From positions 32,001-96,000 of IMG/VR virus record IMGVR_UViG_3300037258_000375: a stretch of 64,000 nucleotides of DNA; one strand, given 5' to 3'. The notes under the pieces were generated by a model. That model did not search any database and was not told where the DNA came from. It saw only the letters and a program-made list of their open reading frames with translations. The first letter of the stretch is position 1. Every line of letters begins with the position of its first letter. This stretch comes from a virus. The position numbers were made by a program, and so were the translations under genes. This document shows positions 31,977 through 60,103 of this stretch, piece by piece.

Positions 31977-32708
31977 TTAAGTGCCGACCTTCGGCCCATC
32001 CGTTCCGTTCATCTCATACCATACAAATTCGCCGTCTTCCCCGATAGGGAAGTGGTCACGGCATGTAGAGCAGAAAGTTCCCTGGTAAAAATATGGATCG
32101 CGCGCGTACGTTTCCGCAATTGCGCGACTCATGATCGTGATCCTCCCGCAACCCATACCTCGCTTGTTCAATTGCTCCTGTGTCCAGAAACGACCGACGG
32201 TATTACTGCCCTTGTATGACTCCGGGTAGGACTCAAACTTCACATACCCATAGTCGCTATAGCGTTGCCGCTCCTCTTCCGTCAGATCACGCACGGAGAA
32301 CTGAGGCCCAGGTGGTCCGATGTGCTTGTAAGCATCGCGGTACGGTCTCACAAAGCCCTTGGCGCGTTCCTCAACGGTCAGGACTACATATCCCTTCTGC
32401 TGCCCATCGTCGCGCAGTTGAGTGTGGCTCCGGTCTTCAGGAACCGGAGCGCCACTGGCAAGAACCTGAGCGCTGCGATCCACTGGAGGTACATTCTTCA
32501 ATCTCTCAGCTTCTCGCTTGGCCGCTAATTCCTCGTAAGCTTCGTGCGCTTTTCCCGATAATAAGCGGGCAAAATTGTGCGCCTGCTCAACGGAGAAGAC
32601 GATGTGCCCGACGCCGTTCTCGTCTGGTTTTAAATCTGAATGGACAACGACAACCTCGCCTTCCCCGTTCGTGCCAATCTCCAACGTTCCCGCTACCTTA
32701 TCTGTCAT
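31977..32708 (-). CDS. hypothetical Zn-binding phage protein
   Basis: YVVL..EERAKGFVRP, CG..T.M..IAETYARDP, FC..C..HF. Confidence 0.7.
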   Translation of the reverse strand: MTDKVAGTLEIGTNGEGEVVVVHSDLKPDENGVGHIVFSVEQAHNFARLLSGKAHEAYEELAAKREAERLKNVPPVDRSAQVLASGAPVPEDRSHTQLRDDGQQKGYVVLTVEERAKGFVRPYRDAYKHIGPPGPQFSVRDLTEEERQRYSDYGYVKFESYPESYKGSNTVGRFWTQEQLNKRGMGCGRITIMSRAIAETYARDPYFYQGTFCSTCRDHFPIGEDGEFVWYEMNGTDGPKVGT

Positions 32709-50701: not shown

Positions 50702-51238
50702 ATGACAAACATTGAAGAAAAGGCGATGGTGTTTGCCACGCGAGCCCACAGAGGGCAGTTGAGAAAGTATACGAACGATCCGTACATTGTGCATCCACTG
50801 ACGGTCGCGGAGATCGTACGCGCCGTTCCCAACCACACAGAAGAGATGATCGCCGCCGCGTGGCTGCACGATGTCAAGGAAGATTGCGGCGTTCAACTGC
50901 CGGAGATCGCGGTAGAGTTCGGCTGGCCGGTCGCCACCATGGTTGATGAACTCAGCGACGTCTCGACCCACTTCGATGGCAACAGGAAGGCACGGAAGGC
51001 CATCGATCTACGACACACAGCGAAGGCGTCTCCGCAGAGCAAGACGATCAAGCTGGCCGACCTCATCGACAACACATCGAGCATCGTGCAATTCGACCCG
51101 AAGTTTGCGAAGGTCTACCTGCCGGAGAAGCTGGCCCTTCTCGAAGTGCTCAAGGATGGCGATTCCGAACTCTGGAAACGAGCCTACAGGTTGGCGCGGA
51201 GAAACGTCTCCCACACCGCGATGTTCTCCAGCCGATAA
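50702..51238 (+). CDS. HD-domain small alarmone hydrolase (SpoT/MESH1-like)
   Basis: AH.GQ.RK...PYIVHP, AAWLHDV.ED, IKLADLIDN. Confidence 0.85.
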   Translation: MTNIEEKAMVFATRAHRGQLRKYTNDPYIVHPLTVAEIVRAVPNHTEEMIAAAWLHDVKEDCGVQLPEIAVEFGWPVATMVDELSDVSTHFDGNRKARKAIDLRHTAKASPQSKTIKLADLIDNTSSIVQFDPKFAKVYLPEKLALLEVLKDGDSELWKRAYRLARRNVSHTAMFSSR

Positions 51239-51495: not shown

Positions 51496-51786
51496 CTAGA
51501 TCGACTCGCCAAGGTCTGCCAACTCCTTGTCGATCTGCGCGCGCTTCTCCTGAGCAGTCTTAAGGCTCTCGCGCTCTGACTTCAACTGACGAATACGCGT
51601 CGCACGACGGTCTTCCATACGTGAAGAAATCTCACGGGAAATGGTATTCAGGTTATCGGAAACGTACTCCGGAACCGTGACCTTCTGTGCCTCGAACTCG
51701 CTACGAAGCTGCTTACCGAATGCTGACAGTGCGACAAGCTCATCGATGTCAGACTCTACATTGAAGTTCTTGAAATCCTGAAGCAT
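51496..51786 (-). CDS. helical protein downstream of Ro60
   Basis: AAAGGAGG RBS; frame also open from 51903. Confidence 0.65.
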   Translation of the reverse strand: MLQDFKNFNVESDIDELVALSAFGKQLRSEFEAQKVTVPEYVSDNLNTISREISSRMEDRRATRIRQLKSERESLKTAQEKRAQIDKELADLGESI

Positions 51787-51899
51787 GGTCTTCCTCCTTT
51801 CCGCGATCCTCTGCTTCGAGAGATCGACAAAGATATTCTTCTTCGGAACCCTATTGCGGCTCGGGTTCTCATGCTTCTTGTTGTGGTAGTTCACTGCCA

Positions 51900-53408
51900 T
51901 CACACACCTACCAGTTCCGTATCCTTCAGCACATCGCTGAGCGACTTCAACGGCGTCGCCATGATCTCGTCAACGAGGCTGTACTGGTTCGACCGCATCG
52001 TCTGCACAAGGTTCGGGATCGCATAATAGTCCGTCTTGCCGTCGCGAAGATCGAACGTCTGCATCTCGATACCCAGTGCATTCATGCGGTAGCTCAAGTT
52101 ATCTGTACCGCCAGCGCAGTGGTAGAAGTAGACCGGCACGTCCTTATCCACGAACGTCGCATACTTCTTATACACATCCGGGAAGTGAGGTGCCCTATTC
52201 TCCTCGCCGTCCGACACGATGGCAATGCCGTCAACCGCGATCTTCTCCGCCAGCATCCGATTCAGACCGCAACCGATGGACGTCGCCGAGCCAGTCTTGA
52301 TGTGCTTCGTCGCGGCGATGACCTGATCCAGCGAGCAACCGGTGACATCTACAGTCATCGGAGTTTCGTCGAAGAACACGAGATACACCTTGCCCTTCAC
52401 GAACTGCGCCAGAGACGCCGCCACATGCTTACCGAACTCGATGCTCTTCTCCATGCTCGGGCTGCGATCCACCAGCACAAGCCAATCGCCAGCCGGACCG
52501 CCAGCCTTCGCGATCTGCTTCGCCTGCAAGCCGCGCAGCTTCTCCTTCAGGCCCTCATCCGTGACGCCCTCGACTGCCTGGGTCGTCTTGAGCGTGTTCT
52601 GCGTAGACGTTGCCGCCTTCTGAAGTGCCTGCTCAAGCGCACCACGCAAAGCTGGGTTGGTCTTGACGCCGAGCTTCTCCAACATCTTCATGCTGGTCGC
52701 TAACTCGGTTGCCGTCATTTGGCCGATGAGGGCCAACACAAGGTCCGGCTCCTTCGCCTTCGCACCAAGAGCACCCGCAGCGATCAAGAACGGCACCTTG
52801 AACCTGATGATTGCGCCCGCCGCCTCAACCGGAGACATGTCCTTGAGGTGTGCCACTGCTTCGAAGACAGAGCCCTTCGGCAAAGCCAGCTTGGTCACAA
52901 CCACGGTACCGTCGATCTTCTCCTTCCACTGGCCGGAGATGACCGCAGCGACGCGGCGGTTACCAGGACCGGTACGTGAGAGCGCGTACAGCGCCTTGAG
53001 CACGCTGCGGTGCTGGATCGCGATGTGATCCCAGTTCCGTGACTCTTCCTTCTGCCGGAGATAGGCGCGAATCACGCGATCCATCTGCGACATCTTGCCC
53101 TTCGGACGAATCTCACGCACGAAATCGAAGGCGCGGCGCAACTCACGCGGGCCGAGCGCAGCCATGTGCGCGACGCTGTTGTCGAGTAATTCGAGATCAC
53201 TCTCGAACGCGAGGCCGAGAACCGGCAACGCGACCTTGCTGTCACGAATCTGACCATGCCGCGCGTTCCAGGCGATCAAATGCTGGAAGAACTCGCCATC
53301 CTGCGCAATGGCCTGCTTGCCAACCTCGACATACTCGCCGAGCTTGCCGTGAGGAGACTTACTCAACTCGCTAAAAACCTTGGAGCGCGTTAAACCCTGC
53401 TTCTCCAT
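51900..53408 (-). CDS. Ro60/TROVE-like RNA-binding protein with C-terminal vWA domain
   Basis: About 500 aa; helical N-terminal region then LVLVDRSPSM, T..GC, IVSDGEEN; adjacent tRNA-mimic RNA array. Confidence 0.75.
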   Translation of the reverse strand: MEKQGLTRSKVFSELSKSPHGKLGEYVEVGKQAIAQDGEFFQHLIAWNARHGQIRDSKVALPVLGLAFESDLELLDNSVAHMAALGPRELRRAFDFVREIRPKGKMSQMDRVIRAYLRQKEESRNWDHIAIQHRSVLKALYALSRTGPGNRRVAAVISGQWKEKIDGTVVVTKLALPKGSVFEAVAHLKDMSPVEAAGAIIRFKVPFLIAAGALGAKAKEPDLVLALIGQMTATELATSMKMLEKLGVKTNPALRGALEQALQKAATSTQNTLKTTQAVEGVTDEGLKEKLRGLQAKQIAKAGGPAGDWLVLVDRSPSMEKSIEFGKHVAASLAQFVKGKVYLVFFDETPMTVDVTGCSLDQVIAATKHIKTGSATSIGCGLNRMLAEKIAVDGIAIVSDGEENRAPHFPDVYKKYATFVDKDVPVYFYHCAGGTDNLSYRMNALGIEMQTFDLRDGKTDYYAIPNLVQTMRSNQYSLVDEIMATPLKSLSDVLKDTELVGV

Positions 53409-53437: not shown

Positions 53438-53989
53438 TTATGGGAGTGTACGAGTTCTGAGATATTCGAGAAGGTCGATATAGCTGATCTTCTTCAACTG
53501 GCACCACGCCACCGCCGACATACCACCTTTGTCTTTGTTGCATTTTCGGCACGCAGACAGGTAGTTACTCGGATCATTCAAGCCGCCCATCTCCAACGGA
53601 TTGAAGTGGTCAATGGTCAATTGAACCTTGCCCATCGGCAGACTACAGTACACACATTTACAGCCGTCAGCCATCCATACTTTCTGCTGGACGGCACCGG
53701 AAATGTCGTAGCGTAGCTTCCGATGGAAAATCTTCTCCATCGAGCCTTGGACAAGAATCTCAGGATCGTCCGATCTCTGGAGCCAGTCCGACCATTCTTC
53801 GGTGGTAAGAATTCGAACTGACGCTACAGTAGAAAGACCACGCGCGTTCGGCAATAAGAACACGGCTTGCGCGCCTTCGCCGCCGATCACGACACCTTCA
53901 ATTTTGAGGATGGAGCCTACGTCGCCGTGGAGAGCGGGACGATGGCGCAATTCTAGCTGATAAAATCTTGAGTCACTCGCCATCGTCAT
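53438..53989 (-). CDS. HNH nuclease with N-terminal extension
   Basis: C.YC, LTIDHF.P...GG.....NYLSAC..CN..KG. Confidence 0.8.
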   Translation of the reverse strand: MTMASDSRFYQLELRHRPALHGDVGSILKIEGVVIGGEGAQAVFLLPNARGLSTVASVRILTTEEWSDWLQRSDDPEILVQGSMEKIFHRKLRYDISGAVQQKVWMADGCKCVYCSLPMGKVQLTIDHFNPLEMGGLNDPSNYLSACRKCNKDKGGMSAVAWCQLKKISYIDLLEYLRTRTLP

Positions 53990-54007: not shown

Positions 54008-54141
54008 CGTGCTGTAGTCGATATGGCTTAGATTTTGCAGAGCCTTTCGGCCCGCGCCCCCCGTATATGAAGCCGGTATGGTGGTGGAAGGGGCCGGGGT
54101 TTCCCCCGGAACAAGATCATGTACCCATGTCAGTCAGCACG
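54008..54141 (-). ncRNA. Y-RNA-like unit G
   Basis: GCTGACTG..GGTACATG ... CGACTACAGC terminal stem. Confidence 0.7.
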
Positions 54142-54356
54142 AACTTAATGCAGCGGCCAAGGAGGCAATTCGTAGCGGTAAAACCTGCTGTTGAGCTTCA
54201 GAGAGTCACTCGGCTCCGCTACACCCTTCTATTCCAGCCTCGGTAGGTCACCCCGCCGCTGCAAAACAAACTTGATCGCGGTACCTTCTATGGCTCTCGA
54301 AGAGTACCTGTTTGGGATCGCATCCTTCTAAAGCCTTCCCTCGGGCACCGCGAACT

Positions 54357-54470
54357 TGGCTGGGGAACTCGGTTACGAGCCGAGAGCCTTCTTGCGAAGG
54401 CGCAAAGACATGTATCCAAGTCAGTCGGCAGTAACGCCGTAGTCGATCTGGAACTTCTTCAGTTCCCCAG
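54357..54470 (-). ncRNA. Y-RNA-like unit F (permuted; acceptor stem plus CCA)
   Basis: TGGGGAA/TTCCCCA-GCCA ends; internal CGACTACGGC-loop-GCCGACTG..TACATG. Confidence 0.7.
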
Positions 54471-54547
54471 TAAAACTTGCTGGCGGGAGTTGCCTCGGCA
54501 CCTTCCACTCCCGGATCGCCTCGCGGCTGTCGAGCCAGCTAAATTAT

Positions 54548-54664
54548 TGGGGGCGGGTCTTGGATTCGAACCAAGATGCTCAGTTGATGAGACTTCGCTT
54601 TGCCATGTACCCGAATCTGTCAGCGTTTCCGCTGTAGTCGCTCCGGATTGTTTCATAACCCGCC
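54548..54664 (-). ncRNA. Y-RNA-like unit E (permuted; acceptor stem, T-arm, CCA)
   Basis: GGCGGGT/ACCCGCC-CCCA ends; CGACTACAGCG-GAAA-CGCTGACAG..GGTACATG; GGTTCGAATCC. Confidence 0.75.
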
Positions 54665-54673
54665 CCAACTTAC

Positions 54674-54796
54674 TGACCTGTAGTCGAAGTGCTATTCCCT
54701 TTCGGGAACGGAGTTGGAATTGAACCAACAACCTTCTGCTTAAGAGGCAGATGCTCTACCAAGTGAGCTATCCATGTAAGCACTTCAGTCAGGCCA
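54674..54796 (-). ncRNA. Y-RNA-like unit D carrying tRNA-Lys(CTT)-like D, anticodon and T arms
   Basis: CCTGACTG..CTTACATG, TAGCTCA..GGTAGAGC, CTCTTAA, GGTTCAATTCC, CGACTACAGG. Confidence 0.78.
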
Positions 54797-54809
54797 TTCT
54801 CAAACTTAC

Positions 54810-54946
54810 TGGGCTGTAGTCGATCTGCTTGTGTTGCTAAGCGCTCTACCACTGAGCTAATCCCGCATAAAATTATGGGGCGGGATGAAGGATTCGAACC
54901 TCCGACCTCTGCCTTGGAAGGGCATGTAAGCAAATCAGTCAGCCCA
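54810..54946 (-). ncRNA. Y-RNA-like unit C carrying a circularly permuted tRNA-Gly(TCC)-like domain
   Basis: GCTGACTG..CTTACATG, CTTCCAA, T-arm, acceptor 3' strand+CCA, loop, acceptor 5' strand, D-arm, CGACTACAGC. Confidence 0.8.
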
Positions 54947-54953
54947 TACTTAC

Positions 54954-55029
54954 TGGCTTGTAGTCGTTCCGCATTGCCTTTCGGCGTGTTCGTGTTCAAA
55001 GCGATCATGTATGCGAAACAGTCAAGCCA
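54954..55029 (-). ncRNA. Y-RNA-like unit B (minimal)
   Basis: GCTTGACTG..ATACATG ... CGACTACAAGC. Confidence 0.7.
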
Positions 55030-55042
55030 TACTCAAAATTTC

Positions 55043-55159
55043 TCCGCTGTAGTCGTCTGGCAACCCCTTGCGGGGACACGGTCGGATTTGAACCGACTGC
55101 TTTTCATCCAAATTGAAATGTGGGACCAACCCACACATGTAAGCCAAACAGTCAGCGGA
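55043..55159 (-). ncRNA. Y-RNA-like unit A with T-arm
   Basis: GCTGACTG..CTTACATG, GGTTCAAATCC, CGACTACAGC; promoter TTGCGC-N17-TAAGGT upstream. Confidence 0.72.
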
Positions 55160-56994: not shown

Positions 56995-57348
56995 AAATCG
57001 AGGCCGGGTATTGCTTTGCATGGAACCCGGCGAACCACGGATAGCTGTTTTTAGGCAGCCATCGGCAACGCATTATCCTCAGCGTTTATTGGTCTGCATC
57101 CCTTTTGCGGGCGGTAGCAGGGTTCCCGGCACGAAGCTGGAGTTCATTGATCTCGTCGAAACCTTGACGCCCCCACCAAGAAACACTGATTGAGAAATGT
57201 CTAGCCTGTCCACGAAGCTTTTTGACCAGCTTCGCCCTCGTAGCGCCGGAATCGAACCGACGACGCAATTAGTGCTTCTTGGTGGAGGCGGCGGGAGTCG
57301 AACCCGCGTCCGAAATCAACTTCCTTCAGTGTTGACGTGCGTAACTCA
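56995..57348 (-). ncRNA. ssrA: circularly permuted (two-piece) tmRNA; tag (A)AEDNALPMAA
   Basis: Acceptor piece ..GGACGCGGGTTCGACTCCCGCCGCCTCCACCA (to 57280) precedes coding piece GGGGGCG..TTTCGAC (from 57174); G3:U70; tag ORF 57083-57051. Confidence 0.85.
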
Positions 57349-58906: not shown

Positions 58907-60103
58907 CTACGTCTCAAGAATTTTCCCGATCTTTACGGCGGTCGGATGGTCGCCGATCTCCAGCGAGATCGAGGATGAATCCGTCATCGTCAGCGGACCT
59001 TCTTGAGCGAATGGTTCATAGACGGCGACATAGCAATTCGACGGCAGCGTGAGGATCACTGAGACATTCGGATTGGTGATGTCCGTGTTCGTCGTCAAGT
59101 TGTAGCAGCTAATCTCCTGCCACAAGAACAATAGCCATGTGCCGTCCGATTGTTGGAGTAGAAGGCTCGAAACAGATGCACCGCTTAACGTATAATTCAA
59201 CGCGGTCAAGGCCGGACTCGTGTTGGTCGGAAGCAGTGTGAGCAAGTTTCTCACTGCTCGATATACTGGCTTCACGGTACCATCCCAGCGGATCATGCCC
59301 CAGGCATAGGTCGCATTCGTGAGAGTGGGATCGCTGCCTTCGTCCTGCAACTCGTAGAGATAAGTACGCACGATACCGCGTGAGAAGTTGTTGAGCAGCA
59401 AACGCAGTATGTACTTCGCGGCGGCGATCTCGGAGACTCCGGGCTGTCCACCTGTCTGGTGAATCGCGTTGTGATATCCACTCTCGGTTGCCATGATCGG
59501 CTTGGTTCCGTTAATGGCTTCGAGTTGTGTCGGCTGGGCTGGAGTGCTCGTAAAGCCGACCGTGGGCATGTTTCCAGCCGGGTAGTAGTGCCAGTTCCCG
59601 AAATCGCACTCCATTAGACCCGCCGCCGCAGCGCTTGAAGGATATGCCATCGAAGGAGCGATTACCGGCATCGCAATGCCCTGAGCCATGGTCTTGGCGA
59701 ATCCATATAGCGGGGTCTGGTAGGCAGCGAGTACGGCTGGCCAGTTCGCTTCACCGCTCACGTCCATCTCGTTCGGGCCTTCGAGGCATTCGATGCTCAT
59801 TCCGCTCTTCCAATAGAACTGGTTCAATAGGTCGGCGGTGAGTGTACCGAGGTCTGAGCGCGGATCGACGACCGCATCGAACGAGATGCCCTGCCTTGCG
59901 ATGAGTGTCCAGGTTGTGAAGAGTGTGTTGTCGTAGTCGTCGTTCAACGTGTGAAGGCCATCTCGCACGTGGACCAGACCGAGGGCCTTGAGTTGTGTCG
60001 CTACGAGAAGAGCATTCCCATAATTCAGATTGAAGTAGTTTAAGTGTGTGTTGACGCCAACACTCTGGAAGAGCGCGGTAGAAGTGGAAAACGGAACCGG
60101 CAT
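58907..60103 (-). CDS. clan GH-A glycoside hydrolase-like protein
   Basis: GVNTH, HVRDG, EGPNE, N.H.Y, ATESGY, YLYEL.D. Confidence 0.75.
   Translation of the reverse strand: MPVPFSTSTALFQSVGVNTHLNYFNLNYGNALLVATQLKALGLVHVRDGLHTLNDDYDNTLFTTWTLIARQGISFDAVVDPRSDLGTLTADLLNQFYWKSGMSIECLEGPNEMDVSGEANWPAVLAAYQTPLYGFAKTMAQGIAMPVIAPSMAYPSSAAAAGLMECDFGNWHYYPAGNMPTVGFTSTPAQPTQLEAINGTKPIMATESGYHNAIHQTGGQPGVSEIAAAKYILRLLLNNFSRGIVRTYLYELQDEGSDPTLTNATYAWGMIRWDGTVKPVYRAVRNLLTLLPTNTSPALTALNYTLSGASVSSLLLQQSDGTWLLFLWQEISCYNLTTNTDITNPNVSVILTLPSNCYVAVYEPFAQEGPLTMTDSSSISLEIGDHPTAVKIGKILET

Follow-up and report, generated by a model that had tools for sequence, protein, structure and literature searches.

Y RNAs are thought to act as tethers, one end holding the protein Ro60 and the other recruiting an effector. 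Among the bacterial forms, YrlA RNAs (RF02553; Chen et al. 2014, PMC4201824; structure in Wang et al. 2018, 10.1101/312249) are encoded beside Ro60 on the same strand and are built in the order T arm, loop-closed acceptor, D arm, with an enclosing terminal stem that carries the Ro site. The YrlA of M. smegmatis has a 7-bp acceptor inside the RNA, which is cut by ribonuclease P (RNase P) in vivo and provided with CCA, leaving two pieces (PMC4201824). In Yrn1 of D. radiodurans, the Ro-binding stem is formed from the RNA ends and D-like, anticodon-like and T arms lie inside in native order; Yrn1 was treated by Chen et al. as a lineage separate from YrlA (PMC4201824). In contrast to this split, both topologies were found in one array with one shared module in the DNA of an uncultured soil phage analyzed here, a stretch of 64,000 nucleotides ("the window"; positions 32,001 to 96,000 of the 105-kb IMG/VR virus record IMGVR_UViG_3300037258_000375). 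The array comprises seven small-RNA units at 54008-55158 on the minus strand, the last of them 0.6 kb upstream of a Ro60-like gene; as for YrlA, units and Ro60/Rsr gene lie within about 4 kb on the same strand. Since the neighboring gene encodes a protein with the Ro60 fold, the units are candidate Y RNAs.

Ro60 homologues are also known from phages. The Ro60 of Thermus phage phiLo binds Y-like RNAs encoded by the phage and is found in complexes with host PNPase (PMC12135203), and the Ro60-like protein gp130 of Bas63, encoded beside tRNA genes, counters Ppl defence (10.1101/2024.10.10.617714). The present locus resembles both in that a phage Ro60 homologue is accompanied by adjacent candidate Y RNAs near tRNA genes; the minus strand of the window is rich in the latter, with 29 tRNAs and one permuted transfer-messenger RNA (tmRNA). 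Yrl1 and Yrl2 of phiLo are stem-bulge-stem RNAs with a CGAA motif, and an acceptor-ended form was not described. For comparison, we used 3 viral and 80 metagenomic loci encoding relatives of the Ro60-like protein (related loci, identified by L numbers), which show the same synteny of array and Ro60 gene as the window. The seven units are as follows:

Unit A, 55044..55158, minus strand: module closes the ends; native-order tRNA-like body with D, anticodon-like and T arms, a Yrn1-like join
Unit B, 54955..55028, minus strand: module closes the ends; small YrlB-like cargo without tRNA arms, with motif matches; fold z-score -3.55
Unit C, 54811..54945, minus strand: YrlA topology; module closes the ends
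Unit D, 54674..54796, minus strand: module closes the ends; tRNA-Lys(CUU)-like cloverleaf and an extra hairpin
Unit E, 54548..54664, minus strand: candidate tRNA-ended Y RNA; capped module
Unit F, 54357..54469, minus strand: candidate tRNA-ended Y RNA; capped module
Unit G, 54008..54141, minus strand: module closes the ends; three-hairpin cargo; homologues in L001 and L003

A shared module and two placements of the chain ends

Folding of the units revealed a module consisting of an outer stem, an AC/ACUA internal loop (5'/3' side), an inner stem of 8 bp, a single free base and the hexamer UACAUG. The outer stem of 5-7 bp differs in sequence in every unit with its pairing always kept; the inner stem begins with U.G followed by G-C, its remaining positions varying while staying paired. 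UACAUG is invariant among the seven units, and their fold z-scores ranged from -2.7 to -3.9. The motif CGACUAC(R)(R) occurs eight times in the window compared with 1.5 occurrences expected, seven of these within 54012-55055. Furthermore, the pattern YTGACWG-N7-TACATG was found six times in the whole 105-kb genome, in all cases in the array and on the same strand; unit F has the variant CGACUGA.

The initial annotation had proposed that the same RNA occurs in three circular permutations. Its description of the individual units was borne out by the minus-strand sequence and the folds: the conserved helix forms the 5' and 3' ends of A, B, D and G; the motif halves of E and F occur in reverse order, joined by GAAA or GUUACU, and the ends form an acceptor stem with NCCA; in C, acceptor and CCA are internal with an AU-rich loop. 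However, the module closes unit C too. For the three ARRANGEMENTS, the RNA of A, B, C, D and G is closed by widely separated module halves, and in E and F the halves are reversed and capped. The chain ends thus have two placements and not three, C being closed by the module like A, B, D and G.

Unit C is the only unit with the YrlA order. Its 5' part contains the module 5' strand, UACAUG, a hairpin with a CUUCCAA loop and the T arm (54903-54887); the middle consists of the acceptor 3' strand (54886-54880), C plus CCA (54879-54876) and the 9-nt AU-rich linker UAAUUUUAU (54875-54867), followed in the 3' part by the acceptor 5' strand (54866-54860), the D arm and the module 3' strand. The internal acceptor pairs GCGGGAU with AUCCCGC. 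Against the Rfam YrlA model, unit C scored 29 bits (E 8e-4) across T arm, acceptor and D arm, and a C-type unit of L036 scored 46 bits (E 2e-9) against the whole model, both below the gathering threshold of 69 bits. In the L036 alignment, GGCUUACAUGC was aligned to the consensus GGCGAAUGC; UACAUG thus stands where YrlA has its GNCGAA Ro motif and appears to be the positional equivalent of the presumed Ro contact. The array differs from YrlA by this replacement as well as by the additional outer stem and internal loop, which would fit a UACAUG handle that has co-diverged with a very divergent Ro60.

Unit C shares the internal 7-bp acceptor with the M. smegmatis YrlA, but its CCA is already encoded and is followed by the AU-rich linker, so that the unit looks like the junction of two tandem tRNA genes. 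Its 3' half agreed with the phage tRNA-Gly(UCC) at 35/47 positions from the anticodon loop to CCA. Such a junction would fit the dimeric-tRNA model of Y RNA origin as outlined in 10.1101/312249. The permuted two-piece tmRNA gene of the window (57051-57340, minus strand; RF04321, 101 bits; ARAGORN tag AEDNALPMAA) is written in the same way as unit C, namely acceptor 3' strand, CCA, spacer and acceptor 5' strand; unlike tmRNA, the Y units have neither a tag reading frame nor pseudoknots.

Units E and F are organized in the opposite way to YrlA: the chain begins and ends at the acceptor stem, and the Ro stem carries a cap. Unit E starts with the acceptor 5' strand (54664-54658), a linker and the module capped by GAAA, including CGACUACAG (54640-54632) and UACAUG (54609-54604); its 3' part comprises a hairpin, the T arm (54575-54559, loop UUCGAAU), the acceptor 3' strand (54558-54552) and CCCA (54551-54548). 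The 7-bp acceptor pairs GGCGGGU with ACCCGCC. Correspondingly, the acceptor 5' strand of unit F (54469-54463) is followed by a linker and the module capped by GUUACU, with CGACUACGG at 54445-54437 and UACAUG at 54414-54409, and then by a GCAA-capped hairpin, a T-like arm (loop CUCGUAA), the acceptor 3' strand (54367-54361) and GCCA (54360-54357); here, UGGGGAA pairs with UUCCCCA over 7 bp. In both units a 5-bp stem with a 7-nt loop directly abuts the acceptor 3' strand. Hence, they possess the sequence features of an RNase P substrate, a 7-bp acceptor stacked on a 5-bp T stem and a 3' NCCA; these features are shared by 32/44 homologues. As tRNAs (RF00005) they are incomplete, since both a D arm and a 7-nt anticodon loop are missing; E and F were called by neither ARAGORN nor the Rfam tRNA model. 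Units of this type gave no Rfam match at E <= 0.1, and for their chain order neither an Rfam family nor a description in the literature searched was found.

In circular notation, the module 5' strand of unit C is followed by UACAUG, a hairpin and the T arm, then by the two acceptor strands, 3' before 5', with the loop between them, and finally by the D region and the module 3' strand. When the module is closed and the acceptor loop opened, exactly units E and F are obtained; C and E/F are exact circular permutations of one design. Furthermore, homologous units were present in both permutations in different phages, with 82-87% identity after rotation. The acceptor-ended unit L036:500-624 and the module-ended unit L070:537-670, which has the YrlA order, agreed at 88/107 aligned bases when rotated, and the tRNA-ended unit L003:2985-3104 agreed with L070:537-670 at 82/94. 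Additionally, some matches of R2, a covariance model of the E/F type described below, straddled two tandem YrlA-type units (L070, L044, L049 and L081), the intermediate expected if permutation proceeds by tandem duplication and subsequent loss of the outer halves. The array hence illustrates, in actual sequences, how homologous RNAs can be circularly permuted, for which tandem copies provide a plausible route.

Units A and D were also considered as rotations of C and were rejected, as the cyclic order of their arms differs: the D arm follows the module 5' strand and the T arm precedes the module 3' strand. This is a Yrn1-like join, and the topology of both units is that of Yrn1. Unit A matched the Rfam tRNA model with 27.1 bits over 55076-55140 (fold z-score -3.35). 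Unit D reached 56.6 bits and was called tRNA-Lys(CUU) by ARAGORN; its cargo is identical to the phage tRNA-Lys(CUU) at 48/62 positions. Its acceptor-like stem has just 5 bp and lacks CCA, which sets it apart from a tRNA (RF00005). Units B and G have only the module in common with the others. One hairpin of unit G is G-rich/C-rich with a loop starting ACCA (ACA in L003:3262-3375); in one register it shows G3.U70 with A73, resembling a loop-closed alanine minihelix without T or D arm.

The proposal of three permutations therefore applied to C and E/F only, and the array is better described as one handle that is joined to a tRNA body in three ways, of which two are related by rotation. All three joins occurred together in 10/61 regions, including this window. 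The combination of one Ro60 handle with tRNA bodies in the order of YrlA, of Yrn1 and of a native tRNA, the last with free CCA ends, would constitute a natural experiment, and the two published topologies need not be separate lineages. Rotated tRNA bodies are also known from circularly permuted tRNA genes of red algae and archaea, which according to the account in 10.1101/312249 yield normal tRNAs by splicing endonuclease and ligation; in the present case, either order seems to represent a final product equipped with a Ro handle. Finally, b7a-tRNA (Burroughs and Aravind 2016) is summarized in 10.1101/312249 as a predicted tRNA-like RNA in native order, sometimes beside Rsr. This description mentions no Ro-type hairpin such as that of E and F.

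Conservation of acceptor-ended units in related loci

Upstream of the Ro60 gene, a simple parser counted 202 units with the module in 61 regions (160 kb), as compared to 9 on the reverse complement. For the tRNA-ended type, a Python classifier over-called capped modules (e.g. unit B), and the counts given below for this type therefore rest on covariance-model matches. When all E/F units were aligned with MAFFT, the 5' acceptor strands were not brought into register and no helix other than the T stem was recovered by RNAalifold; these alignments were hence replaced by a seed of seven sequences with a hand-written structure, from which covariance model R2 was built. In this seed 92% of cells were paired compared with 30-42% when partners were slid, and compensatory changes were present in 24/31 pairs. 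R2 matched full-length units of 105-130 nt in about 25 distinct loci. Unit E scored 41 bits (E 3e-7; fold z-score -3.55) and unit F 26.5 bits (E 1.5e-3); an architecture nearly identical to that of F was found in L005 and L002. R2 also matched genuine tRNAs with 20-40 bits and the module deleted, which shows that E and F are in native tRNA order. Among 44 distinct full-length R2 matches, pairing was as follows:

Acceptor helix: 98.7% of cells paired
T stem: 99.5% of cells paired
Outer stem: 92.7% of cells paired
Anticodon-like stem: 90.5% of cells paired
Inner stem: 79.6% of cells paired

Covariation was observed in all five helices, with several pair types at most positions. NCCA was present in 32/44 tRNA-ended units as compared to 6/32 acceptor loops of C-type units assigned by the parser, and 10/32 of these loops were plain tetraloops. 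CCA is thus kept where the end would be free. This contrast fits a functional tRNA-like 3' end and processing of the RNase P type.

G3.U70 together with A73 is the alanine identity set common to tRNA-Ala and tmRNA. The initial annotation had regarded E and F as possibly aminoacylated; the set recognized by alanyl-tRNA synthetase (AlaRS) is, however, absent from both, E having C3-G70 with C73 and F having G3-C70 with G73, although G3.U70 was found in 15/44 related units, all 15 with A73, among them L003:2860-2976 and L011:394-511. This subfamily of E/F-type relatives hence shares the alanine identity of tmRNA. Another subfamily has a 3-bp D arm with a GG dinucleotide and an NNCAUAA anticodon-like loop.

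The type extends to distant relatives. In the deposited, unannotated 595-kb phage LR756511 (LR756511.1, L084), two E/F-type units (1959-2086 and 2466-2595; 62 and 51 bits) were found upstream of a Ro60 gene with 28% identity; in them, UACAUG is replaced by UACAAA, and CCA is not encoded. Units of the YrlA type were present throughout the relatives examined, and the E/F type is concentrated in closer relatives in addition to LR756511. The suggestion that the set records how Y RNAs arise from tRNAs was thus sustained in part: it fits the dimeric-tRNA model, but with the YrlA type present throughout and the E/F type reaching a distant megaphage, the distribution among relatives does not settle the direction of change between C-type and E/F-type units.

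Proposed function and alternative explanations

The two genes downstream of the array bear on its function:

Ro60/Rsr-like gene, 51900..53408, minus strand: 502 amino acids; helical ring and VWA domain
HNH-nuclease gene, 53438..53989, minus strand: between array and Ro60 gene; Pfam HNH_5, 1e-9

The Ro60-like protein was identified by fold search only. Its AlphaFold (AF2) model, with a predicted local distance difference test (pLDDT) score of 79, matched Ro60 structures over the full length in Foldseek (2nvo, 9nen, 1yvp, 9kop and 9l5y; E 6e-9 to 1e-6, template-modeling score 0.52-0.61), including D. radiodurans Rsr, human Ro60, Xenopus Ro60 and the Ro60 of Thermus phage phiLo. In sequence searches it matched phrog_850 "RNA-binding protein" (1e-7) and, in Pfam, only a weak VWA; neither a Pfam TROVE match nor a PDB match by phmmer was obtained. 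More than 900 relatives of about 500 amino acids exist on contigs of up to about 140 kb, and tblastn against deposited phages returned one uncultured megaphage. With this fold encoded downstream and the score of unit C as YrlA, the initial description of the units as Y-like was supported.

We consider it likely that the array encodes phage Y RNAs which partner the Ro60-like protein and combine a shared docking module with differing tRNA-derived bodies, E and F being rotated forms of C. Ro60 would dock on the module, and each unit would join this module to a different tRNA-derived body. Unit C would be of the YrlA type, a permuted tRNA body whose ends are closed by the module. Units E and F would run in native order from the acceptor 5' strand over a remnant of the D region, the capped module with UACAUG, a hairpin at the anticodon/variable position, the T arm and the acceptor 3' strand to the encoded NCCA. 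The tRNA-like appearance of their ends makes excision by RNase P with 3' trimming the most likely way of release; they would then persist as L-shaped RNAs with the Ro60 handle as a side arm and could tether Ro60 to factors recognizing tRNA ends or elbows. Given the M. smegmatis precedent and the substrate features of E and F, it is reasonable to expect a two-piece maturation of C, as the initial annotation had suggested, and a tRNA-like maturation of E and F.

Several observations weigh against this interpretation. The published Ro motif GNCGAAN0-1G is not present in the module, and where the array does contain GNCGAA, it belongs to GNRA hairpins within B and G. Our case for Ro60 binding to the module consists of its position and of synteny. 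The T loop CUCGUAA of unit F is non-canonical and the D-loop GG is missing from both E and F, which makes a true tRNA elbow uncertain. In a minority of homologues the tails are degraded (ACCU, AUCA, GUCA), and a simple scan for a sigma-70-type promoter found none.

Alternatively, the module could be a processing or recognition signal for another factor, for example a stem cut by RNase III or the HNH nuclease, and the units would be tRNA-like decoys or substrates released from it. In favor of this, the canonical Ro motif is missing, the module pairs the 5' and 3' flanks in 5/7 units, like rRNA and tRNA processing stems, and the HNH gene is a conserved neighbor. We nevertheless regard such a signal as improbable: cutting of the internal, capped module of E and F would split these RNAs, UACAUG aligns with the position of the YrlA Ro motif, and the module precedes the Ro60-like gene in related loci and is absent from the rest of the 105-kb genome. 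Slightly less credit still is given to the idea that E and F retain their acceptors and NCCA as relics of ancestral tRNAs and are never released from one long structured transcript. An acceptor with CCA can sit inside a loop, as in C-type units, and the R2 matches straddling tandem YrlA units would agree with relics; however, NCCA is kept far more often where it would be terminal than where it is looped, and the 7-bp stems lie directly against the T arm, as an RNase P substrate must. We consider it very unlikely that E and F are decoding tRNAs with a tolerated large insertion. Their native tRNA order and the subfamily of relatives with NNCAUAA loop and 3-bp D arm would suit decoding, but the anticodon position is occupied by the GCAA-capped hairpin in F and an irregular hairpin in E, a D arm is lacking in either unit, and the tRNA searches made no call on them.

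If the array thus encodes Y RNAs of the Ro60-like protein, Ro60-bound RNAs are predicted to be acceptable to RNase P, the CCA enzyme and, in the G3.U70 subfamily, AlaRS. From the other phage Ro60 homologues we infer a role in RNA surveillance or counter-defence; by the same analogy, the array probably supplies adaptors steering phage Ro60, and perhaps the HNH nuclease, to RNA or tRNA-handling partners during infection. As phage Ro60 homologues are tied to counter-defence, the array RNAs may be their missing specificity factors. A more far-reaching proposal, which we put forward tentatively and consider rather unlikely, is that acceptor-ended Y RNAs mature like tRNAs, that at least the G3.U70/A73 subfamily is charged with alanine, and that Ro60-bound RNA thereby enters tRNA pathways in the manner of tmRNA, the array being an adaptor toolkit. 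In that case, EF-Tu, the ribosome, or enzymes and defence nucleases sensing tRNA ends would be the points of entry; each adaptor would be aimed at a different tRNA-handling partner, and rotation of the chain ends between tandem copies would generate new ones.

Neighboring genes and further elements of the array

An HNH homologue (about 58-70% identity) was located directly upstream of Ro60 on the same strand in 28/62 loci; it therefore looks like an operon partner rather than a stray homing endonuclease. The Ro60 gene is flanked by genes for an HD-domain protein (50702-51238, plus strand; HD_4, 4e-15) and a 135-amino-acid protein (51496-51903, minus strand; weak DUF7194). Within the tRNA region, an open reading frame of 398 amino acids (58907-60103, minus strand) had no Pfam or PHROG match. 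The array itself gave only tRNA-level matches in blastn against deposited phages.

Three more stretches with long closing helices were noticed between E, F and G on the minus strand (54477-54537, about 54275-54345 and about 54150-54262). They are closed by GCUGGC/GCCAGC, CGCGGUGCC/GGUACCGCG and GCAGCGGC/GCCGCUGC, and do not contain the Y module. No Rfam model matched any of them at E <= 10, and they may represent further small RNAs.

The whole array is probably made as one precursor. An AAGU(U/A) motif was observed after nearly every array element (54006, 54146, 54273, 54357, 54478, 54671, 54807, 54951 and 55175, minus strand), with a density of 8.3 per kb in the array as compared to 1.7 per kb in the window. 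In related loci, 22% of the module-ended and 35% of the acceptor-ended units are followed by this motif at a distance of no more than 14 nt, the background being 5%; it may be a processing or punctuation signal.
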